Shown: in pieces, positions 6,786-42,605 of the stretch
Position numbering within the stretch: position 1 is the first letter of the stretch
How the letters are laid out: each line of letters starts with the position of its first letter
Assembly: GCA_021784975.1 (NCBI GenBank)
Contig: JAJYGU010000390.1
Location: forward strand, 1-50,750
Reading direction: 5' to 3'
From: Planctomycetota bacterium
Lineage (GTDB): Bacteria; Planctomycetota; Planctomycetia; Pirellulales; Thermoguttaceae
DNA length: 50,750 nt
Position numbers and translations under genes: made by a program
The notes under the pieces: generated by a model
Databases searched by the model: none
Told to the model about the DNA's origin: nothing
What the model saw: the letters and a program-made list of their open reading frames with translations, nothing else

Positions 6786-7158
6786 CAAAGCACCTCTCAA
6801 CACCTGGGACCTCTTTCTTCCTTTATTCTAATTCGAGATTTGCCGACTGCGGCCACCGCACCCATCTTACTGGTGGATGCCTGGCTCGGAGTATTCACCA
6901 CGGAGGAGGCCGAGGACGCAAGCGGGGATTTGCGACAAGAAATTGACTATTCCAAGCGGCGCAGGGCGTTTCGTTGCATGTTGGGAATCTCTGTTTTCCT
7001 CTGCGTCTCTTACGTCCTCCGCGGTTCCAGAATGATCTGGTCTGGGGCATACCACGATTGGTGATTCGCCCTCCGCCTTTCCTATCGCACCCCACGATTG
7101 GGGAATCGCCTCATTGCGGCCAATGCGTTATAGTGCTCGCGGGAGAAAATGAATGATC

Positions 7159-25605: not shown

Positions 25606-27069
25606 ATGCCGCCCGTGGCCGGTGAAAGGAACCGCGTCTTGAAGATCAACGGCTATCTGTTGGGTTGCGTGGTGGTGGCTGCCTTGGGCGGCTTGTTGTT
25701 TGGCTTCGACGCGGCCGTGGTTTCGGGGACCACCGAGGCGCTCAAGAAGGTCTTTCAACTGGAGGATTCCTGGCTGGGGCTGCCCGGCTCGTTCTGGCTC
25801 GGCTTTACCGTGGCCAGCGCCATGATCGGCACGATTGTCGGCTCGATCGCGGTCGGCCGGCCGACCGACCGCTTCGGGCGACGGACGGTGTTGATCGCCA
25901 TTGCCGCCTTGTACGTGATCTCGTCGTTGGGAACCGCTCTTCCGCGGCACTGGACGACCTTTCTGCTCTTTCGCTTCATGGGCGGGCTGGCGATCGGCGG
26001 GGCCTCGGTGGTCTCGCCCATGTACATCGCCGAGATTTCCCCGGCCGCCTATCGCGGACGGCTGGTGGCGGTTACCCAATTCAACATCGTCTTCGGTATC
26101 CTGCTGGCCTTCTTCTCCAACTACCTGATTGCCCAGATGGACCTCGGCGACAACGAGTGGCGATGGATGTTCGGCGTGGTGGCGGTCCCGTCGGCAATTT
26201 TCTTCTTGCTGCTGTTTGTCACCCCCAACAGTCCGCGCTGGCTGGTGGCCCAAGGGAGGACCGAGGAAGCCCGCCGCATCTTTCGGCGACTGGGGGCGGA
26301 CGACGTAGAAGGCGAGCTGGGCGACATCCGGGCCTCGCTCGACACGGCCCATCACAGCCTTCGCGAACCGTTCTTCCGCAAAAGCTATCGCACACCGATC
26401 CTGCTGGTGGTGGCCATCGCCGTGTTCAACCAGCTTTCCGGCATCAACGCGCTGATGTTCTACGCGCCGGCCATTTTCAGCATGGCTGGGGCGGACAAGA
26501 GCGCTGCCCTGTTGCAGGCGGTGGCCGTCGGCGGCACGAATCTGGTGTTCACCATCGCGGCCATGGCGATCATCGATCATTTTGGGCGGCGGCGGCTGAT
26601 GATCGTGGGTTCGATCGGCTACATCCTCAGCCTGGGGGCCACCGCCTGGGCGTTTTACAGCTACGGCGACGCCTTTGCGGCGGCTGCCGACGCCGTCCGC
26701 TCCGGCGCTGCGGTCCCCGCCAGCGTGGCGGCGGCCGCTTCTTCCGGGGCCCTGACGGTGTTGATCAGCCTGTTGGTGTTTATCGCCTCGCACGCCTTCG
26801 GCCAGGGGGCGGTGATCTGGGTGTTCATCAGCGAGATTTTTCCCAATCGCGTGCGGGCGCGAGGGCAGGCCCTGGGCAGCTTCACCCACTGGTTCATGGC
26901 CGCCGCCGTGACTTGGACCTTCCCCGTCTTCGCCAAGCTCTCGGGCGGGCATACCTTTGCCTTCTATACGGTGATGATGGTCTTGCAATTGCTGTGGGTA
27001 TGGTTCATCATGCCGGAGACCAAGGGCGCATCGCTGGAAGAGATTCAATGTAAACTGGGGATTGAGTGA
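25606..27069 (+). CDS. MFS sugar porter (XylE/GalP-like)
   Basis: ATG at 25606. Sugar-porter signatures LGGLLFGFDAAVVSG, GRPTDRFGRR, PMYIAEISPAAYRGRL and PETKGASLEEI. Confidence 0.9.
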   Translation: MPPVAGERNRVLKINGYLLGCVVVAALGGLLFGFDAAVVSGTTEALKKVFQLEDSWLGLPGSFWLGFTVASAMIGTIVGSIAVGRPTDRFGRRTVLIAIAALYVISSLGTALPRHWTTFLLFRFMGGLAIGGASVVSPMYIAEISPAAYRGRLVAVTQFNIVFGILLAFFSNYLIAQMDLGDNEWRWMFGVVAVPSAIFFLLLFVTPNSPRWLVAQGRTEEARRIFRRLGADDVEGELGDIRASLDTAHHSLREPFFRKSYRTPILLVVAIAVFNQLSGINALMFYAPAIFSMAGADKSAALLQAVAVGGTNLVFTIAAMAIIDHFGRRRLMIVGSIGYILSLGATAWAFYSYGDAFAAAADAVRSGAAVPASVAAAASSGALTVLISLLVFIASHAFGQGAVIWVFISEIFPNRVRARGQALGSFTHWFMAAAVTWTFPVFAKLSGGHTFAFYTVMMVLQLLWVWFIMPETKGASLEEIQCKLGIE

Positions 27070-27094
27070 CCGCTTTTGCCAAGGAGAACCAACC

Positions 27095-28147
27095 ATGAAC
27101 GAAACTTCAACCACCCGCCGCGACTTCTTGAAAACCGCCTCGGCGGCGGTGGCGGGCGTCTCAGTAGCCTCGCTGGCCGCGGCCCAGCCGGCCGACACCG
27201 CCAAGATCCTCAACTACAACCCGAAGATGGGCTACCGGCCGTTGGGCAGCACGGGGTTCATGATCTCGGAGATTGCCCTGGGCGGACACGGCGGCCGAAC
27301 GCCTGAGGATCGCGTGCCGGTCCTCGAGCGGGCCGTCGAGCTTGGCATGAACTATGTGGACAACAACATGGCGAGCGAGTGCGAGATGTACGGGGCGGCC
27401 ATGGCCAAGTCGTCGGCTGCCCAACGCGACAAGTGGTTCATCGGCTTTGCTTCGTGGCCCGAAAAGATCACCAGCGAGTACGAGGACCAGTTGACGCCCC
27501 AGGGCATGATGAAGAACATCGAGGCCCGGCTCAAGACCTACCGCACCGAGATGCTCGACATGTGGCGGCCAGTCGGGGCGACCTGGGGCGAGGGGCAGAC
27601 CAAGATCGCCACCCTGTTGATGGTCAACCGCAAGGCGCTCGACATGGTGGTCTCGGTGTTTGAAAAGGCCAAGCGGCAGGGGAAGGTTCGTTTTTTGGGC
27701 GTATCGGCGCACAACCCCAAAGTTTTTCGCCGCGTGCTGCAAGAGTACCCCCAGTTCTCGGTGATTATCTTCCCGTACCTGTTCCTCACCGAAGAGTTCG
27801 GCGGCGACAGCCTCTTGAAGCTGGCGGACGAAAAGAAGGTGGGCGTGATCGGGCTCAAACCGTTCGGCGCCGGCACCACTTTCGGCGTCAAGCCGCAGCA
27901 GATCCATGGCAGAGTCGACCGGCGGGCACACGTGCTGCTAAAGGAGATGCTCAAGGAGCGGCGGATTTCGGCAGTCATCCCCGGCGTGAACATCCCCCAC
28001 CAACTCGACGAAAACGCAAAAGGCTCCCACGAAAAAGGCAAGCCGGCCAGCGACGCGGAAAAGCAGGCCCTGCTGGAATGCACCCGGAACTACCACGCCC
28101 ACCTCACTCCGAACTATCAGTGGCTGCACCAATGGGAACGCGTCTAA
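27095..28147 (+). CDS. Aldo/keto reductase-family protein with a twin-arginine signal peptide
   Basis: AAGGAGA then ATG at 27095. Tat motif TRRDFLKTASAAVAGVSVASLAAAQ. AKR-like elements GMNYVDNN...EMYG and LGVSAHN. The usual TK lysine position reads FAS. Confidence 0.85.
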   Translation: MNETSTTRRDFLKTASAAVAGVSVASLAAAQPADTAKILNYNPKMGYRPLGSTGFMISEIALGGHGGRTPEDRVPVLERAVELGMNYVDNNMASECEMYGAAMAKSSAAQRDKWFIGFASWPEKITSEYEDQLTPQGMMKNIEARLKTYRTEMLDMWRPVGATWGEGQTKIATLLMVNRKALDMVVSVFEKAKRQGKVRFLGVSAHNPKVFRRVLQEYPQFSVIIFPYLFLTEEFGGDSLLKLADEKKVGVIGLKPFGAGTTFGVKPQQIHGRVDRRAHVLLKEMLKERRISAVIPGVNIPHQLDENAKGSHEKGKPASDAEKQALLECTRNYHAHLTPNYQWLHQWERV

Positions 28148-28728
28148 GAGGGTGTCCAATCCCCGGAGCGCGGGCGTCTCGCCCGCCCTGCCGTCGGCAG
28201 AGCCGTCAACGTATTAGGCCGCCATCTGTCAGCCGTGCATTCGGCGCGACGGCGGTCGGCCTGGCCGTTCTGGCCGTCGTGGCGACTGCCCTCTGGGCCG
28301 GAGGTATCACCTCCGCACGCGCTGAAAAAACGGCCGGCAGGAAACCTACCATGGCTGCCGTCCCGCCGGATGAAGATGCCATCGATCCTCTCGGGGCGAA
28401 TGCGGCCTGCTACGTGTGCCACATGACCTTTGTCAAGGAGGAATTGGCCAAGGTCCACCTCAAGGCGAAGGTAGGCTGCATCCAGTGTCACGGCCTAAGC
28501 GCCAAACACGCCAACGACGAAAACATCGGCGCCACCAAGCCGGATATCACCTTCAAGCGTGAGCAGGTCGACGCCTCCTGCGCAAAATGCCACCAAACGC
28601 ACGATGCGCCGGCCCAAAAAGTCGTCGCCCGTTTCGTCGAGCGGCACCTGGCAGCCAATAAGCCGCCCATCTGCACCGATTGCCACGGCCAGCACAAAAT
28701 CGCCCGGGCAGCGGAGAAGAAACCATGA
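28132..28728 (+). CDS. Membrane-anchored tetraheme c-type cytochrome
   Basis: Four CxxCH motifs (CYVCH, CIQCH, CAKCH, CTDCH) follow a TM/signal segment AVGLAVLAVVATALWAG. The start is uncertain (ATG 28132 or 28078), and both choices overlap the AKR 3' end. Confidence 0.8.
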   Translation: MGTRLRGCPIPGARASRPPCRRQSRQRIRPPSVSRAFGATAVGLAVLAVVATALWAGGITSARAEKTAGRKPTMAAVPPDEDAIDPLGANAACYVCHMTFVKEELAKVHLKAKVGCIQCHGLSAKHANDENIGATKPDITFKREQVDASCAKCHQTHDAPAQKVVARFVERHLAANKPPICTDCHGQHKIARAAEKKP

Positions 28729-28988: not shown

Positions 28989-29882
28989 CTATCTCGCACG
29001 CAATTGCGCCAGCGTGCCCAGCCCGTAGTAGGTGTACTCTACGTCGGCGGCGTCGTCGCCGGGGCAGGCCAGGAAACCTCCGCCGCTTTGGCTGGTTTCG
29101 CGCACGAATCGGGCTGTGCCCGGCATGTCGACGGTATCGAGTCCGTCGAGGGCGGCTAGTGTTGTCAGGCCGGTGAAGGTGGAGAGCAGGTCGCCGGTCG
29201 GCGCGCCGGCGTGGGCCTTCAGGCCGCCGTCAGGGCTTTGCACACTGCTAAGAAAGCCGATCACCTGGGTGCGGTGACTGGAACACAGCGCATCGCGCAT
29301 AGTCAAGAAGGCGACGGCCGCGGCCGTGGCGTTGGTCTGCGACGCCGGCTGGCCGTCTAGTTCGGCAAAGCCGCCGTCGGCCCGACCGAGTGCCTCCACC
29401 GCCTGGATCGCGCCGTCGACGCCCGGCATGGGCTCGCCCAGCATCTGAAAGCACAGCGCCCCGAAAAACGTATAGTAGGCGCTCGTGCGCGAATCGCCGG
29501 GCCACCGAGTTAGCCCCCCGCCGGGCAGCAAATACCCGCGAAGCACCTCCAACACGCCCTGCCGGTCGAGCGACACTCGACCCGCTCCCAACGTGCGACC
29601 CACATTCAGGAGGCTGAATGCGTCCACGAGGTTTCGGGGGCAGCCGGTGTGCCGGCCCAGATAGTTTGTTGCCCGGTCGAAGGCCGGATCGTCGGGCGCC
29701 AGAATCGCGAGGCTCCGCAGGGCGAAGTCGGTATAGTACAGGTCGCTGCCGCCTTGGCGACCGCGAAATCCGCCGTCGGACTGCTGGCACTCCGTCACGA
29801 AGCGGACCTGGGCGCCGACAAATTCATCGCTCAAGCCTTGCAGACCGAGGCGGATCGCCTCATCCAGCAGATCGAGATACAT
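28989..29882 (-). CDS. Prenyltransferase/squalene-oxidase-repeat (alpha-alpha toroid) protein
   Basis: Repeated Q..DGGF / DGGL motifs (QQSDGGFRGRQGGSDLYYT, GRADGGFAE, QSPDGGLKA, SQSGGGFLACPGDDADVEYTYY). ATG lies 4 nt after the upstream stop. Confidence 0.8.
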   Translation of the reverse strand: MYLDLLDEAIRLGLQGLSDEFVGAQVRFVTECQQSDGGFRGRQGGSDLYYTDFALRSLAILAPDDPAFDRATNYLGRHTGCPRNLVDAFSLLNVGRTLGAGRVSLDRQGVLEVLRGYLLPGGGLTRWPGDSRTSAYYTFFGALCFQMLGEPMPGVDGAIQAVEALGRADGGFAELDGQPASQTNATAAAVAFLTMRDALCSSHRTQVIGFLSSVQSPDGGLKAHAGAPTGDLLSTFTGLTTLAALDGLDTVDMPGTARFVRETSQSGGGFLACPGDDAADVEYTYYGLGTLAQLRAR

Positions 29883-29886
29883 GCGT

Positions 29887-31683
29887 TCATTCCTGCAGAA
29901 TCATCCGCACGAAGAACTGCATCAGTTCTTGCAGGTCGGGCGTAGGAAACTCGGCGGCGGCGGCCAGGGCGCGGTCGCGCAACCTCGCGTACAACTGCTC
30001 AACCTTCGCCAGCGCGCCCGATTCGCAGTAGACCTGGTACACCTGGTCGAGCAACTCGTCGCTGGTCGAGTTCTCCATCAGCTCGGCCAGTTGCGCCAAC
30101 CGCGGTCCATGCCCGCCTTCCGTCGCGAAAATGTGCAACAGAGTGACACGGCCGGCGCGGGCGTCGAGGCCGCGATGCCGCTTGTTGTGTTGGTCTTCTT
30201 GCCAGTCATCGAGGTCGTTACGAACCTGGAACCCTTCGCCGAGATAGGTGGCAAAGCGGCGGAGGATCGTCGGGTCGACGTCCGCTTGGGCCGCCCGCAG
30301 CCCCGCATAGAGGGCCGCCTCGAAGGCCGGGGCCGTCTTCTGCGCGGCGGCCTGCATTGCTTGGGCCGCCGCATAGGGCGGCCGGTGATCCTGGCTTTGC
30401 AGTTCGGCTCCCTGCCCGCGGCACAGTTCCAAGTGGGCGCGCGAAAGCCGGTCGAGAATATCGCCACTGCAATCGGCCCCCAGCGGCACGCTTTGCCCGG
30501 CAATCAGCCGGTAGCCCAGGCCGATGAGGAAATCGCCGACGTTGATGGTCTGGGCCACGCCGTGAATGCGGTGCAGCGTGGGAAGGCCGTAGCGGTAGTG
30601 GTCGTTGTCTTCGATATCGTCGTGGACCAGCGAGGCCTTGTGCAAGGCTTCAATGGCTAAGGCGATGCGGCGGACCGCCACTGGCAGTCGCTCCGCCAGA
30701 TCGCTGCCCGGGTCCGCCTGCTCCAGAACGCCGGTTCCGTGTTTGGCCACCGCATAGGCTGCCAGGGTCACGAACGGCCGCAAGCGTTTGCCGCCCTCTT
30801 GGAGCCATTGCAAGGCTATCTCTTGAACCGTTGGCCCCAAGGGGGGCCGTCCCATTTCCACAGCCTCCTGCCGCGAAAATTGGGACAGTCCCCGTGAACC
30901 GTTACCAAGCTGCCCGGCTAATTCGGCAACCTCGATATAAGGCGCGAGCAGCTCGGCGAACGTCGGCTGGCGAAACATCCGACCGGTCTCGCGGAGCAGA
31001 CCGAGGTAGCTCCGCCGCGAGGTCGGCGTCAAGACCGCCGTCGGCGCGGACTGCGCCGCCAAGAGACTGCGAATCTGGCCGATTTCCGCTTCGGTGTCCT
31101 TGCAACCGTCTCTCAGCAACGGTACGGCGACGTGCGGGATGCCGAGCTCGACGACGCGTTGGAAGGATCGCTCCAGGGAATCGAGGCAGGCGACGCCGAG
31201 GATCGCATCCGCGTCCCCTTCCAACACGCGAAAAAGAACCGACGAGGTGCCTTCCGCCACGATCACCGAGTAGCCCAACTGCTCGGCTTCGGCCTTCAAG
31301 GCGTGGATCTCGCAACTGCCGCAGCCGGCGCAGTGCAGGCCCACGGAATCATAGCTGCCCGCGCACGCGGTCTGGTCGCGCAAGCAATGCGGCAGCAGGA
31401 ACAACCGGCGATGAAGGGCGACAGTCTCGAAGATCGGCAGCCAGAATTCGTTGCTGACCGCTACCATGGTGAAACCAAGTAGAGTCCGCGGCAGCTCCAA
31501 CCGCTGCAAAATCTCCTTGCCGATTTGCTCCAATCCCTCCCGCGACATGGGACGCGAGCGGTCCAGCCCGGCCGCTGCTCGGGCCGCGGCCGAGCGAATC
31601 GCCTGCCGCAGGGTGGCGCTTTCAGGAACGCGCTTGATCTCGTCGTGGCGGCGGTGAGCGGCTTTCAGAGGCTTAGAGGTCAT
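29887..31683 (-). CDS. Fusion protein: DUF116-like Cys-rich domain plus trans-polyprenyl diphosphate synthase domain
   Basis: ATG at 31683 overlaps the cyclase TGA (ATGA). The N-terminal half has LFLLPHCL...CAGCGSCEI...GYSVIVAEGTS...GVAC (DUF116 pattern). The C-terminal half has GKRLRP, LVHDDIEDND (first Asp-rich motif) and FQVRNDLDDW (variant second motif). The track's longer ORF to 32319 is an artefactual extension. Confidence 0.8.
   Translation of the reverse strand: MTSKPLKAAHRRHDEIKRVPESATLRQAIRSAAARAAAGLDRSRPMSREGLEQIGKEILQRLELPRTLLGFTMVAVSNEFWLPIFETVALHRRLFLLPHCLRDQTACAGSYDSVGLHCAGCGSCEIHALKAEAEQLGYSVIVAEGTSSVLFRVLEGDADAILGVACLDSLERSFQRVVELGIPHVAVPLLRDGCKDTEAEIGQIRSLLAAQSAPTAVLTPTSRRSYLGLLRETGRMFRQPTFAELLAPYIEVAELAGQLGNGSRGLSQFSRQEAVEMGRPPLGPTVQEIALQWLQEGGKRLRPFVTLAAYAVAKHGTGVLEQADPGSDLAERLPVAVRRIALAIEALHKASLVHDDIEDNDHYRYGLPTLHRIHGVAQTINVGDFLIGLGYRLIAGQSVPLGADCSGDILDRLSRAHLELCRGQGAELQSQDHRPPYAAAQAMQAAAQKTAPAFEAALYAGLRAAQADVDPTILRRFATYLGEGFQVRNDLDDWQEDQHNKRHRGLDARAGRVTLLHIFATEGGHGPRLAQLAELMENSTSDELLDQVYQVYCESGALAKVEQLYARLRDRALAAAAEFPTPDLQELMQFFVRMILQE
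30843..30893. repeat. Palindromic GGGACNGTCCC element, copy 2 (degenerate left box), inside the DUF116-synthase ORF
   Basis: ggggccgtcccatttccacagcctcctgccgcgaaaattgggacagtcccc is 51 nt long. It is read through in frame as ...GNGSRGLSQFSRQEAVEMGRPPLG... about 15 codons before GKRLRP. Confidence 0.75.
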
Positions 31684-33044
31684 CTGCGGGTTGCTCTGCC
31701 AAGGGCCTCGATCGTCCAGATCAGCGGATACAGCCGTTCCGAGTACCAAAGCCGGGAAAAATACAGGCCGATGGCCGCCGGCCGGTCGCACCCCTGGCGG
31801 ACGTTTGCCACCAGGTACTTCACTCCTCGCGACACGCAGTGGCCGGCCGCCGGATTTTGCGGCCAACCGGCCAGGGCCGCCACGGCCAGCGCCGTCTCCT
31901 CGACCGATGACGCAATGCCGGTGGAGCCGCCCCAGCCGCCGTCGGCGTTTTGCGCGCGGCACAGATATTCTACGCCACCGGCCGCCTGGGCACCATTGCC
32001 GTCGACGATTTCCAAGGCCCGGAGCACCAATGAGGTGCCAATCACCGGATTGTGCTGACCCGGTGCGGCCTGGTTGCCAAACCAGAGCGGCAGCCAAGAG
32101 CCATCGGACTCTTGGACGCGGCCCAGATAGTCCCCTCCGCGGCGGAGTGCGCGCCGCAGCCGGGCGGTCGATACGCGGTGCGTAGAAGGGGACAGTCCCA
32201 TTTTTGCGGCATCCTGCCACAAAAATTGGGACCGTCCCCGGCGGTTGATACCACCCAGGGCGCGGAGCACGTGGGCCGTCACATCCGGGGCGCTGCGGTC
32301 GAAGAGGAGCTTTCCCCATCCACGGCAGAAGGTCGGCCAGCCGCCGTCGCGGTTTTGCAAGTTAAGCAGCCAGTTTACGCCGGCAACGGCGCCGGCGTGG
32401 TGCCCCAGTTCCGCCAGCGCGATCAGGGCCCCGGCCGTGTCATCCGCGTCGGGCACCCCGCCCGGCAGATGCGTCCATGCCCAGGCGCCCGCCGCCGCCT
32501 GCGTGTAGGGGTGCGCGGAGGCCGTTTGTCGAGCGGCGACCCATGGGCCGGTCGTAGGGCAATCAAGTTGTCCTAGCGATCCGGCCGCCGCCAGCGCGGT
32601 AACCGCCGATGTGGTCAGCCATACCGCCAGGTTCGTGTCGATCGGCCAACTGCCGTCGGCCCGCTGCGATTGGCGAAGGAATTGCAGGCAGCGGGCGGCT
32701 ACCGGCTGTTCCGGTCCGAATGACGAAACCAGGCCCATGGCGACGAAGCTGGTTAGCGGGGCCGCATCCAGGAATCCGCCATGTTCCGGCTGAATCTGCT
32801 GAAGCTTCGCCAAGGCCCGCGGCGTCGTCGCTCGCCGTAACGCGCGCAGCAAGCCACTGTGGGGCGGACCATGGTGGTGGATTGCCAGGCCAATGGCAAT
32901 CAGGGCCGGCAGGGCATAGCTGACCACGTGGAGCCGGAGCAGTCTATAGCACCAAGGCGGCAGCACCGACAACTCGAAGGGCAGGCCGGGAACCTCCGGC
33001 CAAGAAACCAACCCGGCCAGGGCGCAGTTCATCAAGATCGGCAC
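31680..33044 (-). CDS. Class II terpene cyclase (squalene-hopene-cyclase-like), C-terminal about 75 percent; same frame as 33066-33488
   Basis: DxDDTA catalytic motif (VPDADDTAG) and QW-like repeats QRADGSWP, QNRDGGWPTF, QESDGSWLPLWFGN, QNADGGWGG. The track start is a GTG with no SD, 21 nt after an in-frame TAG. Confidence 0.8.
   Translation of the reverse strand: MPILMNCALAGLVSWPEVPGLPFELSVLPPWCYRLLRLHVVSYALPALIAIGLAIHHHGPPHSGLLRALRRATTPRALAKLQQIQPEHGGFLDAAPLTSFVAMGLVSSFGPEQPVAARCLQFLRQSQRADGSWPIDTNLAVWLTTSAVTALAAAGSLGQLDCPTTGPWVAARQTASAHPYTQAAAGAWAWTHLPGGVPDADDTAGALIALAELGHHAGAVAGVNWLLNLQNRDGGWPTFCRGWGKLLFDRSAPDVTAHVLRALGGINRRGRSQFLWQDAAKMGLSPSTHRVSTARLRRALRRGGDYLGRVQESDGSWLPLWFGNQAAPGQHNPVIGTSLVLRALEIVDGNGAQAAGGVEYLCRAQNADGGWGGSTGIASSVEETALAVAALAGWPQNPAAGHCVSRGVKYLVANVRQGCDRPAAIGLYFSRLWYSERLYPLIWTIEALGRATRR
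32188..32239. repeat. Palindromic GGGACNGTCCC element, copy 3, inside the cyclase ORF
   Basis: ggggacagtcccatttttgcggcatcctgccacaaaaattgggaccgtcccc. It is translated in frame as ...RRGRSQFLWQDAAKMGLSPS..., between a DVTAHVLRAL helix and the next QW repeat. Confidence 0.85.
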
Positions 33045-33065
33045 CGCAAACGTGCGATCGGCGCC

Positions 33066-33488
33066 CTAGGCGCGTTGAATTGCACAGGCAATCTCGCGGG
33101 CCGAAAGGGGAGAAGCACACTTGCACTGTGTGACCACGTACTCTTCGGCCCCCAGCTTCATGTCTGGCGCGGATGGGATGCGGAGCGCGCCTGCCAACCT
33201 CAAGGCGGCGAGGGCCAACAGCGTGGTCGCCAGGTTGCTGGGGCTATCAGTCGTGTCGCCCCAACCGCCGTCGGCGTTCTGATGCGCGGCCAGCCAGGCT
33301 ACGCCACTGCGGACGCCTTCGCGGTCGCTGTCCACTTTGGCCAGGGCGAGCGCGCTGATGGCGGTCGCGGTCGAAAGCGCCGACGAAGAAAGCTCCCCCT
33401 CCCAAAAGCCCTCGGGCCGCCGCGCCTCGATCAGCCGGCCGCAGAGGAATTGAAGCGTGTCGGCCATGACCGCCTGGAAGGTCAGCAT
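33066..33488 (-). CDS. Class II terpene cyclase, N-terminal fragment, ending at an in-frame TAG
   Basis: MLTFQAVMADTLQFLCGRLIEARRPEGFWEGEL and AAHQNADGGWGDT resemble the SHC N-terminus. ATG at 33488 lies 30 nt after the radical SAM stop. Longer starts (33590, 33653) would overlap that gene. Confidence 0.6.
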   Translation of the reverse strand: MLTFQAVMADTLQFLCGRLIEARRPEGFWEGELSSSALSTATAISALALAKVDSDREGVRSGVAWLAAHQNADGGWGDTTDSPSNLATTLLALAALRLAGALRIPSAPDMKLGAEEYVVTQCKCASPLSAREIACAIQRA

Positions 33489-33517
33489 TTCGGACGCATT
33501 TGCGTTGGCAGGCGTGG

Positions 33518-35020
33518 TCAAGTTCGCGCCCTCCAGGCATGCCAGGCCAACAAGAACTTCCACTGCAAGATCTGGCCGCGACCCAGACATTGCAAGGCGA
33601 CGCGACGGAACCGCGGTACGCCCGCCGCCTGCTGGTTGTCGGCGTAGATCCAAGGCACCCAGCGAAAATTGAGTCGGTAGCAGGTCCTTATCAACGACCA
33701 GTGTAGCGGCCGCAGGCGCCGCCGGTCGATCGGCGCCGCGCCATCGACCGGGGCAAAGAGCAAGGGAAAAACAGCGATCCGCTCCTTGCTCAGGCTGCGC
33801 ACCCAGTCCAGCGTCTCCACGAGGTGTTCGTCGCCTTCGCCGGGCAGGCCGATCATGAGGCTGACCATCGGAAAGAAGCCGGCCCGGCAGAGCCGCCGCA
33901 CCTGTTCGGCGCAGAAGGCGCCCCAGTCGCCGGCTTGGCGGCCGTGCATCTTGGCCGCCCCGCCGATCTTCCGGAGCAAGTCGCCTGAGGCGGTTTCCAC
34001 GCCCAAGTTGACCCAGACGCGGCGATCGAGGTCGCGGCCCACGAGCAGATCGTGCAACGCGGCAAGCTGCCGATCGTCATACTGAGCGACGCTCGACACG
34101 TTGGCATGATCCAGTTGAATGAGCCGCACCCGCGAGAGCTGTCGAATCCTCTGAAGCAAAGAAATCAGTGCGTCGGGCCGGGCGTTGAGACCCTCGGCGC
34201 CGTAGCGGAAGAAATCCTCGCTCAAGACGGCCACATTGTGCAAGCCGGCGCTAAGGTTCGTATCGACATCGGCTATTACCGTCTCTGGCGGAAGATGGAC
34301 CATTGGCACCCGGGCGATGGTGCAATACGAGCAGCCCAGCCCGCAGCCCCGGCTGATCTCCACCGCGCCCATGGTGGTGGCGCCGCGGATCGGAGGAATT
34401 GGTGCCGCCGCATGCCAGCCGCCTTCGATCACTTCCGGGGTTGGGTTTTTTTGCACTAGCCGGCGGAAGGCGGCCGCCACCTTTTCTTCCGCATAGCCGG
34501 TCAGCAGATGATCGATGCCCAACGCCTTGCGCTCGGCGGGGCGGCCGGCAAGCTGCCAGGCCCCCGGTCCGCCCAACACCACCGCGGCCGAGGTGCGCCG
34601 GCGGAGCCGCCGCACTTTGCGCATCAGGCGGCGAAACATCGCCTGCGGGTAAATCCGCCCGCCGGCCACGGCGGTCATGGTCGAGCTGTTCATGCCCAAG
34701 CCCGCCGGCTCGCCGGAGGAGATGCCGATCACGCGGGTCGCCGGCCCGATGGCGTAGTCGAGTTGATCGTCGCGGACTACGGCCACCTCTTCCGCCGTGA
34801 ATCCATCGGCCAGCAAGGCGGCTTCGACGCGTCGCAATCCCAGCGGGGCCAGGCTGGCCCGATCTGCCGCCCCGCGGGGACGCGGCATCAGCAGGCCCGC
34901 GAACAGTGCCGGCGGGGCGGTGGTGGTCTGGCTGGCGGCCAACATCCCGTCGAACAACAGCCGGTAATCCGCCGTCAGCGTTCGGTCGGCCGTCAGGACG
35001 ATCGGGAAGCCGTGGAACAT
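33518..35020 (-). CDS. Radical SAM enzyme with an N-terminal B12-binding-like domain
   Basis: CxxxCxxC cluster motif in AVEISRGCGLGCSYCTIARVP. The N-terminal roughly 200 aa look like a Rossmann-type domain. ATG lies 6 nt after the ferredoxin-gene stop. Confidence 0.9.
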   Translation of the reverse strand: MFHGFPIVLTADRTLTADYRLLFDGMLAASQTTTAPPALFAGLLMPRPRGAADRASLAPLGLRRVEAALLADGFTAEEVAVVRDDQLDYAIGPATRVIGISSGEPAGLGMNSSTMTAVAGGRIYPQAMFRRLMRKVRRLRRRTSAAVVLGGPGAWQLAGRPAERKALGIDHLLTGYAEEKVAAAFRRLVQKNPTPEVIEGGWHAAAPIPPIRGATTMGAVEISRGCGLGCSYCTIARVPMVHLPPETVIADVDTNLSAGLHNVAVLSEDFFRYGAEGLNARPDALISLLQRIRQLSRVRLIQLDHANVSSVAQYDDRQLAALHDLLVGRDLDRRVWVNLGVETASGDLLRKIGGAAKMHGRQAGDWGAFCAEQVRRLCRAGFFPMVSLMIGLPGEGDEHLVETLDWVRSLSKERIAVFPLLFAPVDGAAPIDRRRLRPLHWSLIRTCYRLNFRWVPWIYADNQQAAGVPRFRRVALQCLGRGQILQWKFLLAWHAWRART

Positions 35021-35026
35021 GGCCGA

Positions 35027-35992
35027 TCAGCCTCTCCGCTGCATGGCTCGGTCGAGCTGATCCACCAGATCGTCGAGATCGCTGAAGGCCCGCCGCTGGG
35101 CGGATTCGCCGGACTCCTTCGGAGGCGTGTGGGTCATGGCTTCACGCCCCGCGGGCGGGCGGGCGGATTGCGTTAGCTCCGCCAGCGGGCAGCCACATTC
35201 AGGACAGGCGCCGTTGCCCGCCACCGCCGCCCGCGACTTCTTGGCGACCTTTTGGCCGCAGGCCGGACAGGGCCGGCCGGTGCGGGAGTAGAACATCCGG
35301 CGGGCGGCGGCATCGAGGGCCACCAACTTGCCCGGCGCTCCGGCAATGGCCGCGTCCTTCTCATAGAGCGGAAACATAAGGGCGCTTTGCGGGCAGATAC
35401 GTGCGCAGGCCGGACAGCCCGGCTTGCACTGGTCCGGTTGCCGGACCTGGACCTTCCCATCTCCGTCCAACTCGTACACGCCGAATAGACAGAACTGCAA
35501 ACAATGCTGACAGTTGGTGCACCGCGACTGGTCGACCACCGGGTACCAGCGCGGCTTGGTCGGGGCTCGCAATTCTACCAATCGCCCGGCGTCAAAGGGG
35601 GCAGTCCCAGTTTCGCGGCGGTCAACCGCGTGAGTACGGCTAGATCGCTGGCGCCGCGAGAATGGGGATAGTCCCCCGGCCGCGGCGAAGGCCGACTTGG
35701 CGTCGGCAAACGTGCGGAGATCGAGAATGTGCGATTCGGCGAGGTGAATCTGGTGCCGATGTAAGAGCCAGCTCACCGCCCGCGGATGCAACCATCCGAG
35801 CAAGACTGCCTGCTCCACGCCGTCCGCCAATGCCTTCCAGAGCTTGCTCGACTCAGCCAGGTGATACAGCGGCGGCACGACAAGACAATCGACATCCTCG
35901 GCCCCACATCGTTCGATGATGTCCTGCTCGAGCGCGACCGTCCGCGCATCGGGATGCTCGTGCTTCGAGAGAATGATCCGGTTGGGGCGCAT
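35027..35992 (-). CDS. Two-domain protein: unknown N-terminal domain plus 2x[4Fe-4S] ferredoxin domain and a C-terminal CxxC...CxxC tail
   Basis: ATG at 35992. Cluster motifs CTNCQHCLQFC and CKPGCPACARICP, then CPACGQK...CPECGC near the C-terminus. Confidence 0.8.
   Translation of the reverse strand: MRPNRIILSKHEHPDARTVALEQDIIERCGAEDVDCLVVPPLYHLAESSKLWKALADGVEQAVLLGWLHPRAVSWLLHRHQIHLAESHILDLRTFADAKSAFAAAGGLSPFSRRQRSSRTHAVDRRETGTAPFDAGRLVELRAPTKPRWYPVVDQSRCTNCQHCLQFCLFGVYELDGDGKVQVRQPDQCKPGCPACARICPQSALMFPLYEKDAAIAGAPGKLVALDAAARRMFYSRTGRPCPACGQKVAKKSRAAVAGNGACPECGCPLAELTQSARPPAGREAMTHTPPKESGESAQRRAFSDLDDLVDQLDRAMQRRG
35597..35675. repeat. Degenerate palindromic GGGACNGTCCC-type element, copy 7, inside the ferredoxin ORF
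   Basis: ggggcagtcccagtttcgcggcg ... gccgcgagaatggggatagtcccc. It is translated in frame as ...GGLSPFSRRQRSSRTHAVDRRETGTAPF... and links the two domains. Confidence 0.5.
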
Positions 35993-36024
35993 GGAAAGGG
36001 GGTTCCGTGGCGATGGCGAGCAGT

Positions 36025-36915
36025 TCACTCGACTCGGCTGGGGAAAATCGCCTTGAGATACTTGCGGTTGGCAACGTAATCCACCATCAGCCCGTGCGGA
36101 GCGGCGGCTTCGAGCTGAATCCAGCCGCTGTAGTGGATGTCATCAAGCGCCTTGCGGACCTGGCGGAAGTCGATCCGGCCTTGGCCGAGCAGGTAGCCGG
36201 CGTCTTTGGCGTGGAATTCGCAGATCAGCGGCCCGAGCGTGCGGATCTCCTTGAGGATGTCGCGGCCCTTGTCGGTCGAGTTGCCCACGTCGTAGTAGAC
36301 CTTGACGGCCGGGGAGCCGACACGATCGATGATCCGCATGTTGTCCTCGGCGCTCAAGTAATCCTCGATGCCAATCCGCACCCCTTGTTTTTCCGCCTTG
36401 GGGGCCACGTCTTTCAGCACTCCCACCAGGTGGTCGATCTCGGCAGTGCGGCGCAAGTCGAGGTCGCCCGCGTAAAAGCAGGCCGGCATGACGACCGTCA
36501 GCCCGAGGGCCGTGCAGACGTCGATGCTGTCGGCCAACCACCGGGCTGCCCGCGGATCGCGTTTCAGCGGCACGCTGTTCATCTCGCCGATGGCCAGCGA
36601 AGCGATCTGAAGGCCGGTCCGTTTGGCGGCCTCGCGGTAGCTCTGCTGCACATCGGGGCGCCGCAGGTGCATGTTGTTGCCGACCGACCCCATTTCGACC
36701 TGCACGCCATCGAGCCCGAGGGCCTTGGCGACATCGAAGGCCGCTGTGTCACCGCGTTTGCCCAGCGACCAGTCGCAGGCCCCGATTTTAAAGCCACGCG
36801 ACTGCGGGGCGGCCAGGAGCGGTTCGAGGCCGCCCGCCGCCGCGGCAAAGGCGGCTGCCTGGGCTGAGCGGATAAGCATGGCGCGGCGGGTCAATTGAGG
36901 GCGTGTCGGTTTCAT
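36025..36915 (-). CDS. Sugar phosphate isomerase/epimerase (xylose-isomerase-like TIM barrel) with a Tat signal
   Basis: ATG at 36915. N-terminus MKPTRPQLTRRAMLIRSAQAAAFAAAAGG. AP-endonuclease-2/TIM-barrel-like body. Confidence 0.85.
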   Translation of the reverse strand: MKPTRPQLTRRAMLIRSAQAAAFAAAAGGLEPLLAAPQSRGFKIGACDWSLGKRGDTAAFDVAKALGLDGVQVEMGSVGNNMHLRRPDVQQSYREAAKRTGLQIASLAIGEMNSVPLKRDPRAARWLADSIDVCTALGLTVVMPACFYAGDLDLRRTAEIDHLVGVLKDVAPKAEKQGVRIGIEDYLSAEDNMRIIDRVGSPAVKVYYDVGNSTDKGRDILKEIRTLGPLICEFHAKDAGYLLGQGRIDFRQVRKALDDIHYSGWIQLEAAAPHGLMVDYVANRKYLKAIFPSRVE

Positions 36916-36954
36916 GGCAGACTCCAATTGGGGACTTCTCACAATATCCAGCCG

Positions 36955-36994
36955 CCCTCACCCCTAGCCCCTCTCCCGCACGCGGGAGAGGGGA
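36955..36994. repeat. CCCTCACCC-TAGCC...hairpin element, copy 1 (intergenic, terminator-like)
   Basis: ccctcacccctagcccctctcccgcacgcgggagagggga. The stem is cccctctcccg / cgggagagggg (36968-36978 / 36983-36993). Confidence 0.55.
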
Positions 36995-37003
36995 ATTCGT
37001 CAT

Positions 37004-38329
37004 TCACCACGCCTTGGTGACGCCGGGCATGGCGCAGGGATAGCAGCCGTCGGGGCCCGGCTTGACCAGTGTCTTGCCGTCCCACGCCAGCTTTTTCGGC
37101 GTCAGGTCCAGTTGCGAGTTGACGGCCGCCTCCCAGGTGACCAGCTTGCCGGAGTACGTCGCCATCCGGCCGAGGATGGCGGTCATGGTGCTGTCGGCAG
37201 CCCGGTCCACCTCATTATAGGTCTTGCCGGCTGCCAGGGCCGCCAGCAGATCATCCATCTCAATCTGGTGACCGTCGTGGGCTCGGCGCCATTTCTTGGG
37301 CGGCTGGCCGGCGACCTGCATCACAGCGCTGCCGTGGCCCACAATATCGGCGCTGCCTTGGGTGCCGGTGGCATGTTGCGAGAAGCTGTCCCAGCAGCCG
37401 GCGATCTGACGGCAATAGCTGAACATCTTGACTCCGCTGGCATAGGTGAACTCGACCGCGTGGTGATCGAAGATTTCGCCCACGTCCTTGCCCACGCGGA
37501 CCTGCCGGCCGCCCATCCCTTGGGCCTCGATGGGATGCTCGCGGGCCATCCAATTGCCGACATCCAGGTCGTGGACGTGCTGCTCGACGATGTGGTCTCC
37601 GCTGAGCCAAGTGAAGTAGTACCAGTTGCGGACCTGATACTGCATCTCGGTCTGGTTCGGCCTGCGGGGCCGGATCCACAAGGGACCCATGTCGAAATAC
37701 ACCCTGAGATACTTCAGCTCGCCGATCTCGCCCCGGTGGATGCGGCCTACGATGTCGCGATATTGACGCTCATGCCGCAAATGATGGCCGACGGCCACCG
37801 CCAGCTTCTTTTGTTTGGCTGTTTCGTTGGCCGCCCGGATACGACGGATGCCGGGGGCGTCGGTGGCCAGCGGCTTCTCCATGAAGACGTGCTTGCCCGC
37901 CTTCACCGCGGCCTCGAATTGCATCGGCCGAAAGCCGGGCGGGGTACAAAGCAGAACGAGATCGACGCCGCTCTCCATGGCCTTCTGGTAGCCGTCCAGG
38001 CCGACGAACTTTCGCTCGTCGGGCACGTCGACGCGGTCCTTGAATTGCTTCCGGAGGGCGCCCAGGCTGGCATCCAAGGAATCCTTGAACGCGTCGGCCA
38101 TAGCCACCAGCCTAACGTTGGCCTTGGTGCTGAGCGCGTTGGCGGCCGCGCCGGTGCCGCGTCCGCCGCAGCCGATCAGGGCGATCTTGACCAGGTCGCT
38201 GCCAGCCGCGTGGGCGCTGCGGGCGAGCGACAGGCCGCCCAACGCGGCGGCGCCAGCCGCGAAAGTTGATGCCTTGAGAAAGTCGCGGCGCGAGGCGGAA
38301 TGGGGCTGAGAGTTAGGGTCTTGGTTCAT
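37004..38329 (-). CDS. Gfo/Idh/MocA-family oxidoreductase with a Tat signal
   Basis: ATG at 38329. Tat motif SRRDFLKASTFAAGAAALGG. Rossmann motif IALIGCGGRGTGAA. Confidence 0.9.
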   Translation of the reverse strand: MNQDPNSQPHSASRRDFLKASTFAAGAAALGGLSLARSAHAAGSDLVKIALIGCGGRGTGAAANALSTKANVRLVAMADAFKDSLDASLGALRKQFKDRVDVPDERKFVGLDGYQKAMESGVDLVLLCTPPGFRPMQFEAAVKAGKHVFMEKPLATDAPGIRRIRAANETAKQKKLAVAVGHHLRHERQYRDIVGRIHRGEIGELKYLRVYFDMGPLWIRPRRPNQTEMQYQVRNWYYFTWLSGDHIVEQHVHDLDVGNWMAREHPIEAQGMGGRQVRVGKDVGEIFDHHAVEFTYASGVKMFSYCRQIAGCWDSFSQHATGTQGSADIVGHGSAVMQVAGQPPKKWRRAHDGHQIEMDDLLAALAAGKTYNEVDRAADSTMTAILGRMATYSGKLVTWEAAVNSQLDLTPKKLAWDGKTLVKPGPDGCYPCAMPGVTKAW

Positions 38330-38407
38330 GAATGTTTCTCCAAAAAAACTTGGCTTACAACCGCGGGGTGAAACTCGCGATGGCAATCGCATTCCTGCTT
38401 CCAATCT

Positions 38408-38460
38408 CCCTCACCCTAGCCTTCTCCCGACCAACCTTCGGTCGGTGCCCGGAGAGGGGA
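38408..38460. repeat. CCCTCACCC-TAGCC...hairpin element, copy 2 (intergenic)
   Basis: ccctcaccctagccttctcccgaccaaccttcggtcggtgcccggagagggga. It shares both ends with copy 1 and carries an extra internal hairpin ccgacc/ggtcgg. Confidence 0.55.
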
Positions 38461-38464
38461 CCGA

Positions 38465-39937
38465 TCAGAAGGATAGCAACAGTTGCCAGAGGTAGGTGTT
38501 TGCCAGGCCGTCAATACGCTCCCACACATGTTGGACGAGACTTTCATCACCGGAAACCGAGGGGATCTGCTTACGCTTTTCGCCCCAAGGAACACAGGCG
38601 CCGGCCGGTATTCTGCCGACGGCCGGCGCCAAGGGCGGGCGGCCGTCGCCCCGGCCCGCGCCCGCCACCGGAGCGGGTTCCGCCGGCAGCGAATGGCCCC
38701 GCGAATAAACCCCGTGCTCGCGGGTGAAATCGGTCATGGCCCGGATGTTTTCCACCTTGGCGTCGTTCTGCACGATCGCGCTGGCGTCCATGATGTAGCC
38801 GCCGTCGCGGCCGACGCCGTCAATGATCTCTTGGCAGCGCCGGCGGACATCCTCCGGCGAGCCGAAGGCCAGCAAGGTGTTGGGAACGCCGCCGCTGAGG
38901 CAGAACTTGCCGCCCAGCACTCGATGGGCTTGGAAGATATCGCCCTGATCGACGTGGTAGATGATACTGCCTTCGGGCAATTCAGCGAACGACTCGAGAT
39001 GGTGGTCCCACTTGCCTTCGGCGTAGAACAGCGTTTGCCGGCCCTCGGCCCAAAGCTCTTGGATGATGGGCTTGACGGTGGCCCAATAGATATTCTGGAA
39101 GACCTCCGGCGATACAAAGGGGACGCCGCCGCGGTGCATCCAATAGCCGATCGGCACCAGCCGCTGCGGGTCGGCGGTGGTGCGGGCGACATGGCACAAG
39201 TGGGGCATGAGGGCCTCGCAGGCGGCCACCACCTTGTCGCGGCGTTCGAACAAGTCTTCGACCAGGCCGAGGTAACCGCGGAGCTTGTCGGCCAGAATGT
39301 CCATGGGCGCCTTGAAGATGCCGGCGAGGGCGGAGACGGTGCCCGATTCCGCCCTGAGCTGGGCATTTTGGGCGGCAAAGGCCCCAAAATACTCCATCAT
39401 CGCCATGCCGCCCTTGAGAAACGAGAGGTTGTTCCGCGGGGTGACGGGCTCGCCCGGCCGGCAGACTTCGCTGGATACCCGCGGCAGCCAGACGTTCAGC
39501 AAGAAGCCGGTGGGGTCTTCGATCAGTGGGTCATATTCGTCGGGCCGCATGAAGGCGTCTTGCTGAGGCGGCTCGCGGTACTGGAAGCCCGTGCCGGCGG
39601 GAACGTCGATGCCCGGGATGCCGTAATACTTCAGACCGATCGCCTGGGTGAGTCCGGTCCAGACGTAGACCATGTTTGAGACCACGGCGTCCCAGTCGAA
39701 GCCGGCGGCGCATTTTCGGGCGGCGGCAAACGCCTTTTGGTAATCGTGGGCCAATTCCTGGCAGGTATAGCCGGCGTAGACGCCGGTGAACTCGGCCACG
39801 AACGGGCGGATGGGGATCATGTCCGGCTGGCCGTGGCGCATGGCGGTGACATAACGGTCCAGCCGGCTCTGATACAAGGCTTCCATGTCGGTTGCCCCAG
39901 GCGGACGGGTCGCAGTGGCGGTGGTCATCCTCGACAT
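38465..39937 (-). CDS. Uroporphyrinogen-decarboxylase (URO-D/MtaA-like) family protein
   Basis: 490 aa. The N-terminus RLDRYVTAMRHGQPDMIPIRPFVAEFTGVYAGYTCQE and the overall pattern resemble the URO-D-family TIM barrel. Alternative starts at 39928 or 39886. Confidence 0.75.
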   Translation of the reverse strand: MSRMTTATATRPPGATDMEALYQSRLDRYVTAMRHGQPDMIPIRPFVAEFTGVYAGYTCQELAHDYQKAFAAARKCAAGFDWDAVVSNMVYVWTGLTQAIGLKYYGIPGIDVPAGTGFQYREPPQQDAFMRPDEYDPLIEDPTGFLLNVWLPRVSSEVCRPGEPVTPRNNLSFLKGGMAMMEYFGAFAAQNAQLRAESGTVSALAGIFKAPMDILADKLRGYLGLVEDLFERRDKVVAACEALMPHLCHVARTTADPQRLVPIGYWMHRGGVPFVSPEVFQNIYWATVKPIIQELWAEGRQTLFYAEGKWDHHLESFAELPEGSIIYHVDQGDIFQAHRVLGGKFCLSGGVPNTLLAFGSPEDVRRRCQEIIDGVGRDGGYIMDASAIVQNDAKVENIRAMTDFTREHGVYSRGHSLPAEPAPVAGAGRGDGRPPLAPAVGRIPAGACVPWGEKRKQIPSVSGDESLVQHVWERIDGLANTYLWQLLLSF

Positions 39938-40209: not shown

Positions 40210-40632
40210 ATGCAATGGAGGGATTGGTTATCCGCGGCCGTGTTGGCCAGCAGCTTGAGCACGGTGACGCTGGCCGCCGCGGCGGATTGCGGCTGTCGCG
40301 GGGCCGCGCTGATGAACTACCCGGGCTACGCCGCCTTGTGCGGGGAGGCGTGTTGCTGCTCGCCGGGTTATGCGCTGGTGCCTGGTTGCTGCGAGAATTA
40401 TAAGCCGTGTTGCGACAATGCCTGGGCGGGCTATTGCGAGCACCGGGCCAAGGTGGACGCCCGCCGGAGTCGGGTGGGGGTGCCTCACGCGGGGCGGCAC
40501 GCGGCGGTGTGCTGCGGGTGGGCCGCCATCGAGACCGAAGAGTCGCCGTTGCAGCCCATCCCGGCCGCTCCGGCTGAGCCGCCGGAAAAGTCTCGCCAAC
40601 GCGCGGCGCCCAACCCAGCGACCGGCAAGTGA
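40210..40632 (+). CDS. Small secreted Cys-rich protein
   Basis: AGGAAGGAG then ATG. Signal peptide MQWRDWLSAAVLASSLSTVTLAAAA. Cys clusters: CGC, CGEACCC, GCCENYKPCCDN, YCEH, VCCG. Confidence 0.65.
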   Translation: MQWRDWLSAAVLASSLSTVTLAAAADCGCRGAALMNYPGYAALCGEACCCSPGYALVPGCCENYKPCCDNAWAGYCEHRAKVDARRSRVGVPHAGRHAAVCCGWAAIETEESPLQPIPAAPAEPPEKSRQRAAPNPATGK

Positions 40633-40647
40633 GGCGGGCAAGTCCAA

Positions 40648-40718
40648 GGGGGACAGTCCCATTTTTGTGGCCGGGCACCGTGCGAAGCATGGTCGCCACA
40701 AAAATCGGGACAGTCCCC
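40648..40718. repeat. Palindromic GGGACNGTCCC element, copy 4 (long-loop variant, intergenic)
   Basis: gggggacagtcccatttttgtggc-[24-nt loop]-gccacaaaaatcgggacagtcccc, with boxes at 40650-40660 and 40707-40717. Confidence 0.85.
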
Positions 40719-40939
40719 GCTTTCCGCTGAATCCCAGCCACGCTTCGGCCGATAACCCGAAATGGACCTGCCGGGAGGGCGGGGCACGCTGTGTCCCGTT
40801 TCAGGATTCGAGATCATGGCGACCATGGATCGGCTGCCATGATCTTTTCTATGGCTTGCGACGGAAAGCGAATCCGACGTTCTTCGCGGACGACGGTCGG
40901 TGTCTCCTCAGGCCGTTGCGCGTATCGTTTGCCGGCCGC

Positions 40940-42322: not shown

Positions 42323-42605
42323 CGCAAACTCCAAGCCACCCGCCAGCCGCGAGAAACACGCCGTAACCGACACCATAAATCTAGCCTACGGCAAGCGTCC
42401 CCGATTGGCAAGACGACGGACCGTCGGCTTGGCGAAACCGCTCGCCGTGCGCGCGGCTCAAGGCGTTGGCCAAACTGGTGATACGTACACCACCATGCAG
42501 AGTTATACCAACCGGCTCACGGTAGCTTCCCCTTGGGGACCACTTCTGCTACGTTGGTGATCGTGGTTCGTCTGTCCAGGTTTCCTTTGCATAAGGAGAG
42601 TTCCG

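Follow-up and report, generated by a model that had tools for sequence, protein, structure and literature searches.

DUF116 (Pfam PF01976; COG1852, arCOG02078) is a Cys-rich domain that has been without a function or a structure since the first archaeal genomes, and an earlier study predicted that it binds metal and transfers electrons as a flavodoxin-like module (PMC5898192). The stand-alone archaeal proteins carry two N-terminal transmembrane helices and are encoded beside sulfite/nitrite reductase or ArsA-type genes, and the same study by Makarova et al. 2015 already noted a fusion of DUF116 to a polyprenyl synthase, Psta_0175 of Pirellula staleyi (PMC5898192). Here we analyze a fusion of this kind, encoded at 29887..31683 on the minus strand of a 50,750-nt stretch of contig JAJYGU010000390.1 (assembly GCA_021784975.1, a Planctomycetota bacterium), which we call the window. 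The fusion gene overlaps a gene for a class II terpene cyclase with squalene-hopene cyclase (SHC) domains, and systems that join a prenyl synthase to such a cyclase have been described. In the C35 pathway of Bacillus (HepS/HepT, YtpB and SqhC), a class II cyclase of the SHC family receives its non-squalene substrate from a head-to-tail synthase (PMC7306690). Lon15, AtoE, PlaT2 and Bra4 are class II cyclases whose head-to-tail polyprenyl substrates come from a prenyl synthase encoded in the same cluster, and they belong to a sister clade of the 'SHC-like' cyclases (PMC12324236). The latter were defined by Santana-Molina et al. 2020; their function is undemonstrated, their sister enzymes use head-to-tail epoxy-polyprenyl substrates, and on the stem of the clade, substitutions in the SHC-type dimer surface are unusually frequent (PMC12324236). 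The substrate and product of this clade in bacteria of the Planctomycetes-Verrucomicrobia-Chlamydiae (PVC) group were flagged as unknown in 2020 and again in 2025.

We propose that the fusion is a metal-cofactored synthase of a non-squalene precursor for the SHC-like cyclase, a general statement that we consider evenly balanced between right and wrong. The fusion would make a non-squalene, head-to-tail polyprenyl precursor, which the SHC-like cyclase would fold into rings. A ferredoxin-domain protein encoded in the same cluster would feed electrons to a metal centre in DUF116, and this centre, in a module predicted to be packed rigidly against the synthase domain, would supply precursor formation with a redox step or with redox control. 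The logic of a head-to-tail synthase feeding an SHC-family cyclase would be the same as in the Bacillus C35 pathway, which differs in its cyclase clade, in its YtpB-type class I step, of which there is no counterpart here, and in that HepT has no Fe-S-like domain. Unlike the loci of Lon15, AtoE, PlaT2 and Bra4, where substrates are epoxidised and oxygenases take part, the present cluster has no conserved epoxidase, and its cyclase keeps the alkene-protonating DxDD motif.

An earlier description of the window, made from the letters alone (the sequence-only reading), held that one 598-codon frame joins a DUF116-type domain to a trans-prenyl synthase domain, and the reading frame bears this out. 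On the minus strand the frame is open from 32319 to 29887, and the ATG at 31683 in the open reading frame (ORF) list gives a 598-aa product that ends at a TGA stop. We take this start as fixed because a database protein (P0001) is identical to the product over its full length (598 aa, 100% identity and coverage) and because homologues align with it from their first residues (MTSKPLKAA... or MSSKPLKAA...). Both Pfam domains score far above their cut-offs: DUF116 covers aa 58-206 (31066..31512, minus strand; E 9.5e-31, 106.8 bits against a cut-off of 25, profile positions 6-153 of 155), and the trans-polyprenyl diphosphate synthase domain (polyprenyl_synt, PF00348) covers aa 286-550 (30034..30828, minus strand; E 5.4e-41, 140.9 bits against a cut-off of 27). 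The motifs quoted in that reading (LLPHCL, CAGCGSC, GVAC, GKRLRP, HDDIED and FQVRNDLDDW) all occur in the translation, and no stop or frameshift lies between the domains in the sequence. The structure of the fusion was predicted with AlphaFold2 (AF2), and the full-length model reached a predicted local distance difference test (pLDDT) score of 89 and a predicted template modelling (pTM) score of 0.90. Because a pTM of 0.90 was obtained for a two-domain chain, the two halves are predicted to hold a fixed mutual arrangement. We conclude that the fusion protein is a two-domain enzyme, predicted to be soluble.

A further functional clue lies directly upstream, where 31680..33653 (minus strand) encodes the class II cyclase, with Pfam domains SQHop_cyclase_N and SQHop_cyclase_C (PF13243 and PF13249). 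Its TGA stop overlaps the ATG of the fusion gene as ATGA. The DxDD motif, here DADD, is kept in 16/16 aligned sequences, and the protein scores 56.5 bits against the hopene-cyclase model TIGR01507, whose cut-off is 431; the neighbor thus combines SHC N and C domains and DxDD in a protein that is not a bona fide hopene cyclase. Membership of the 'SHC-like' clade fits the taxonomy of the loci (Gemmataceae and other PVC members) and the descriptions of that clade (PMC7306690, PMC12324236). Neighbors were counted over 84 related loci, with denominators that vary by neighbor (70, 66 or 57). The cyclase gene is found upstream of the fusion on the same strand within 2.5 kb at 60/70 loci and within 600 nt at 50/70, in several phyla. 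A further gene, at 35027..36028 (minus strand), encodes a protein with a central 2x[4Fe-4S] ferredoxin domain (Pfam Fer4_10 and related families; PorD/HgcB-like in NCBIfam), the true start of which is probably downstream of the GTG at 36028. It is upstream of the fusion at 29/57 loci, including loci that have no gene for the radical SAM protein described below; one of these, from Gimesia (L044), has the order ferredoxin-cyclase-fusion. As judged from gene order, the fusion gene is translationally coupled to and co-inherited with the SHC-like cyclase, and because Gimesia keeps the trio without the radical SAM gene, the core unit is the cyclase plus the fusion, often joined by the ferredoxin-domain protein. 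The idea that a covalent link to an isoprenoid enzyme would be a clue to the function of DUF116 is supported, and the conserved cyclase neighbor strengthens it.

We examined the synthase half against solved enzymes. Its best matches among Protein Data Bank (PDB) sequences by phmmer were 3OYR (E 1.5e-20) and 1WY0 (E 2e-20), and by Foldseek its fold resembles those of geranylgeranyl diphosphate (GGPP) and long-chain synthases, including P. horikoshii GGPP synthase (1WY0), the C. crescentus enzyme 3OYR and E. coli octaprenyl diphosphate synthase (3WJK), with a target-normalised TM-score (TMt) of 0.75-0.82. Shared with these PF00348 synthases are GGKRLRP, which is aligned with an identical GGKRLRP, the DDxxD of the first Asp-rich motif (FARM), where HDDIED is opposite HDDVVD, the KT and FQ motifs, the D-x-x-D of the second Asp-rich motif (SARM) and small residues at -4 and -5. 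The FARM, D355-D356-I-E-D359, has D355, D356 and D359 invariant in 85/85 relatives, in which R364, K299, R302, K449, T450, Q486 and D490 are also invariant and D493 is nearly so (83/85). The differences are an N-terminal extension of 285 aa that contains DUF116, a change of RRG to RYG throughout the family, a change of GKxT to GRxT (Arg512 for Lys in 78/85) and, in the clade of the present protein, Asn for the first Asp of the SARM and an invariant Trp after it. We know of no characterised PF00348 synthase that has a fused Cys-rich domain.

The RYG deviation, which the sequence-only reading missed, falls in the segment that starts with HDDIED (30586..30624, minus strand) and stands opposite the RRG of 3OYR, 1WY0 and 4JXY. 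R364-Y365-G366 occurs in 85/85 relatives, and Tyr replaces the second Arg in 100/110 diverse representatives of the wider family. In human farnesyl diphosphate synthase (FPPS), Lys57, Arg60 and Arg113 form salt bridges directly to the diphosphate of isopentenyl diphosphate (IPP) (PMC4106277). By motif register these residues correspond to K299, R302 and Y365 here, so the basic triad for the IPP diphosphate retains two members and has Tyr as its third. With the Arg113 equivalent replaced and K299 and R302 kept, the allylic site therefore looks intact and the second-substrate site appears remodelled. Read from the sequence, the allylic-substrate and Mg2+ site is complete (DDxxD, R364, K449/T450, Q486, (N/D)DxxD and R512). 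RYG is, on this alignment, a more telling deviation than the SARM variant because it is family-wide. Small residues at -5 and -4 before the FARM are the pattern of enzymes that make products of C20 or longer; here they are A350 and S351, which would argue only against a short, FPP-type pocket.

The SARM variant FQVRNDLDDW, at 30202..30231 (minus strand), was aligned by phmmer with FQLADDALDY (3OYR), FQIWDDVLDL (1WY0) and FQLVDDIMDY (4JXY), and these alignments to solved synthases placed no alternative DDxxD elsewhere. The motif reads N489-D-L-D-D493, with Asn for the first Asp. The sequence-only reading had described it as a departure from FQxxDDxxD that is unusual for a chain-elongating synthase, which holds against the solved enzymes and loses its force within the family. 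Asn occupies position 489 in 114/120 listed database matches and in 84/85 relatives (loci down to 35% identity), and is thus typical of the clade. Among the 110 diverse representatives, the first SARM position is Asp in 61 and Asn in 43. D-type members, such as those with YQVLDDLTDW or FQVLDDLDDW, occur among N-type ones at 44-50% identity and prevail below about 35%. If these proteins are orthologues, Asn and Asp are plausibly interchangeable at position 489. Such an exchange would be plausible for a Mg2+ ligand; the NSE/DTE motif, too, can begin with either N or D. Given the D/N interchange within the family, NDxxD alone is no signal of a new chemistry or a switch of mechanism. A few fusion members are without Asp motifs altogether (e.g. 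P0164 and P0145).

The suggested likeness of NDLDD to class I terpene synthases proved superficial. The motif of those enzymes, (N,D)D(L,I,V)x(S,T)xxxE, has Ser or Thr at position 5, where NDLDDWQED has Asp. No Pfam family of terpene synthases or of squalene and phytoene synthases (SQS/PSY) was matched at E<=0.01, PF00348 being the sole match of the synthase half. For both reasons we conclude that the protein is not a class I terpene synthase. Rivera et al. 2001 reportedly described chrysanthemyl diphosphate synthase as an enzyme of irregular coupling that has NDxxD. The chrysanthemyl diphosphate synthases are PF00348-fold enzymes whose second Asp-rich motif is likewise NDxxD (bioRxiv 10.1101/169417). 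They are eukaryotic (plant) FPPS paralogues without an extra domain, unlike the fusion, and the likeness is not diagnostic because N alternates with D in the fusion family. A different departure is seen in Ord1-type enzymes, which keep the FARM and have a degenerate 'pseudo-SARM' preceded by a Tyr-Gln pair (PMC12510300). The chrysanthemyl NDxxD and the Ord1 pseudo-SARMs serve as leads and not as tests.

The DUF116 half contains seven cysteines, C100, C107, C118-x2-C121-x2-C124, C166 and C194, in a segment (31102..31386, minus strand) that is a putative Fe-S or metal site. No variation at these positions was seen in 69/69 and 85/85 relatives, and about 107/110 diverse representatives keep them. 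Makarova et al. 2015 gave DUF116 at least six conserved Cys including CxxCxxC (PMC5898192), and the fusion has these. In the AF2 model this half is a small alpha/beta domain after leading helices, with a predicted flavodoxin-like fold. C100, C166 and C194 lie at or just past the C-terminal ends of beta strands, and the CxxCxxC is in a loop ahead of helix 126-136, a layout that in the model appears typical of cofactor sites on flavodoxin-like folds. The cysteine pattern points most probably to one or two metal centres in DUF116, of Fe-S or another type.

The statement that DUF116 has no known function was confirmed in that no NCBIfam model names it and the PDB yielded no relative, either to a profile search with the DUF116 half (E<=10) or by fold (E<0.04). 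When the whole model was searched against the PDB with Foldseek, the matches were all prenyl synthases and left the N-terminal half uncovered. For aa 1-235, modelled separately with AF2 (pLDDT 81), the best PDB match had E 0.048; DUF116 only weakly resembles flavodoxin/Rossmann-like proteins, namely the B12-binding domain of methylmalonyl-CoA mutase, receiver domains and DPOR/NifEN. With the archaeal stand-alone proteins (e.g. MMP0162) the fused domain shares the nearly whole Pfam profile, CxxCxxC and the predicted flavodoxin-like fold. Unlike them, it sits in an isoprenoid cluster and has no transmembrane-grade segment in place of their two helices: no transmembrane segment was found in the fusion, in which the highest 19-residue Kyte-Doolittle mean is 1.43 overall (below 1.6) and 1.28 for helix 66-87.

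We rule out an artefactual fusion because the same architecture is encoded in at least 597 species genomes in a scan of one genome per GTDB species. All 120 listed database matches (50-100% identity) have both Pfam domains and a length of about 560-620 aa, and at 80 retrieved loci the match spans nearly the full length of the query. These 80 loci come from Planctomycetota (Gemmataceae, Pirellulales, Planctomycetaceae, Isosphaeraceae and Brocadiia) and, outside that phylum, from Armatimonadota, Verrucomicrobiota, Sumerlaeota and Acidobacteriota. A search of the DUF116 part alone against 1.84 billion cluster representatives gave 718 matches at E<=1e-3. Among the sequences returned for the best 150 of these, 109 are at least 470 aa and so of fusion size, and the short representative matches (<400 aa) read like fragments of fusion genes, not like stand-alone DUF116 proteins. 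Our literature search on PF01976, COG1852, Psta_0175 and MMP0162 found only Makarova et al. 2015, and no experimental work on the DUF116 fusion was found in the literature. The fusion family is large, uncharacterised and previously noticed, and the fusion as an observation is not new. The sole case that we saw of a stand-alone DUF116 gene clustered with a prenyl synthase gene is in a Bipolaricaulota isolate, where, according to a figure legend, it is grouped with IspH, squalene-hopene cyclase, adenosyl-hopene transferase and polyprenyl synthetase (bioRxiv 10.1101/2025.11.21.689855, Fig. S12 legend). As far as that legend goes, it hints that the link between DUF116 and isoprenoids is not confined to the fusion.

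The cyclase gene of the window is interrupted by an in-frame TAG (33066-33068, minus strand) where 15 intact homologues all have Tyr (YGxDRTF). Recoding of TAG was considered and ruled out, as TAG is an ordinary stop in the window, where it ends 8/29 confident genes. Because a normal stop stands at an invariant-Tyr codon, we attribute it to a one-base nonsense change (TAY to TAG) or to a base error. In two related loci (L001 and L002) the cyclase gene is split into two ORFs, and in L001, a long ENA contig, a gene for an N6/N4 DNA methyltransferase (6329-7150) lies between the cyclase and the fusion; the split cyclases and the inserted gene may be due to assembly frameshifts or decay.

We next weighed other accounts of the fusion. 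It could be an ordinary chain-elongating synthase of GGPP or longer chains, in which N489 binds Mg2+ like Asp and DUF116 is a structural (Zn) or a regulatory/redox-sensing appendage or a module for docking the cyclase. The interchange of N and D at the first SARM position, the conservation of the FARM, K299, R302, K449/T450, Q486, D490 and D493, and the best PDB and fold matches, which are GGPP and long-chain synthases, all speak for this possibility, to which we give tentative credence. However, the second Arg of RRG, whose equivalent in FPPS salt-bridges IPP, is replaced with near-complete strictness by Tyr, and seven invariant Cys together with a co-inherited ferredoxin-domain gene exceed what a passive appendage would need; because of these three features a purely ordinary enzyme is disfavoured. 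We also considered a reductive enzyme, in which the synthase fold would ionise a polyprenyl diphosphate and an Fe-S centre of DUF116 would give electrons, either for an irregular or reductive coupling analogous to squalene synthase or for an IspH-like loss of diphosphate, yielding a hydrocarbon for the DxDD cyclase. In its favor, the homoallylic site is remodelled with two diphosphate-binding residues kept, and SHC-type cyclases normally take hydrocarbons. Counting DUF116, a putative case, the cluster encodes as many as three proteins of Fe-S type, the others being the ferredoxin-domain and radical SAM proteins; none of its conserved genes was seen to encode a reductase dependent on NAD(P)H or flavin, and NDxxD is also found in the irregularly coupling chrysanthemyl diphosphate synthases. 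We nevertheless think this unlikely: the scheme is entirely inferential, no PF00348 enzyme is known with an Fe-S partner, N at the SARM is not universal in the family, and class II cyclases take diphosphates too, so that a hydrocarbon is not needed.

A transfer to an acceptor other than IPP, as by the all-alpha, indole-directed prenyltransferases of the Ord1/XiaM type, with the product of the cyclase or a substrate held by the toroid protein described below as acceptor, seems to us very improbable. Ord1 structures (9V4G-I) are among the fold matches, and the family has F/Y485-Q486, to be compared with the Tyr-Gln pair of Ord1 (PMC12510300). Against this, the SARM is nearly intact, (N/D)DxxD as opposed to DDxxA in Ord1, the IPP diphosphate site keeps K299 and R302 without variation, and no genes for biosynthesis of an aromatic acceptor are conserved in the neighborhood of the related loci. 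A wholesale change of chemistry is disfavoured because N and D interchange, the SARM is intact and K299 and R302 are retained. The reading of the fusion as a metal-cofactored precursor synthase for the SHC-like cyclase has weaknesses of its own. Metal binding is deduced from the cysteine pattern, which a structural Zn site would fit equally well. On the alignment, the changes of RRG to RYG and, in this clade, of D to N appear to hit residues of importance in canonical elongation, and the enzyme may therefore catalyse something other than ordinary IPP condensation. An adjacent cyclase gene is missing in 10/70 loci. Finally, a genuine TAG in the cyclase gene would mean that the pathway may no longer work in the source organism, even with an intact fusion gene. 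These four points weigh against the proposed role.

In our view the value of the locus lies more in the fixed pairing with SHC-like cyclases than in the NDLDD motif, as the pairing joins the question of what DUF116 does to that of which substrate the SHC-like clade uses. The fixed partnership with a prenyl synthase gives DUF116/COG1852 a chemical context, and the coupled fusion is an obvious candidate for the precursor synthase of the SHC-like cyclase. A cyclised head-to-tail polyprenoid, if that is the product, could have consequences for the reading of sedimentary terpane biomarkers. A bolder version, which we rate as quite improbable, is that DUF116 is a catalytic [4Fe-4S] reductase module that would act with the synthase fold in a ferredoxin-driven reductive coupling or dephosphorylation of polyprenyl diphosphates, giving a hydrocarbon that SHC-like cyclases would turn into unseen polycyclic head-to-tail polyprenoids. 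If this were true, such lipids would be candidate sources of the orphan tricyclic terpane (cheilanthane or 'tricyclohexaprenol') biomarkers; for tricyclohexaprenol, no biosynthetic gene was reported in the literature searched.

Two more genes belong to the cluster in some relatives. Beginning 4 nt past the fusion stop, 28989..29882 (minus strand) encodes a stand-alone alpha/alpha-toroid protein of 297 aa that is like a prenyltransferase beta subunit (Pfam Prenyltrans, 3.7e-19). Its nearest PDB proteins are the beta subunits of Rab geranylgeranyltransferase (RabGGTase) and protein farnesyltransferase (FTase), at about 1e-10, and its last repeat, read by eye and not by a structure-based alignment, has D-V-E-Y where FTase-beta has D-x-C-Y at the Zn-ligand site. 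The toroid gene is directly downstream of the fusion at 20/66 loci. Upstream of the cyclase, 33518..35020 (minus strand) encodes a radical S-adenosylmethionine (SAM) protein (Pfam Radical_SAM) with the motif CGLGCSYC (CxxxCxxC), which weakly resembles B12-binding/TIGR04013-like proteins (67.8 bits, below the NCBIfam cut-off) and is found upstream at 16/57 loci. By sequence, the close relatives of the radical SAM and toroid proteins appear to be uncharacterised. The five-gene order of ferredoxin-domain protein, radical SAM protein, SHC-like cyclase, fusion and toroid protein is seen at loci L003, L006, L009, L014-L018, L029 and L041, spread over Armatimonadota, Planctomycetota, Verrucomicrobiota and Acidobacteriota, and the full set occurs in the closest relatives, from Armatimonadota, 'Zipacnadia', Brocadiia, Verrucomicrobiota and Pyrinomonadaceae. 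A literature search that combined SHC, polyprenyl, radical SAM and Planctomycetes found nothing.

On this contig only, the cluster is preceded by three more genes in the same direction, which are separated by short gaps or overlap (36025-39937, minus strand). They encode a URO-D/MtaA-like protein (490 aa), a GFO/IDH/MocA oxidoreductase and a xylose-isomerase-like TIM barrel protein, and the related loci do not conserve them. The cluster strand has a single sigma70-like match, at 40037-40009, and a scan for promoters and terminators gave nothing above shuffled controls. Farther out, 40370-42481 (plus strand) is an ORF of 703 aa without a Pfam match at E<=0.001. On the other side and convergent with the cluster, 27062-28728 (plus strand) harbors genes for a TAT-signal-bearing aldo/keto reductase and for a small multihaem cytochrome c with CXXCH repeats.

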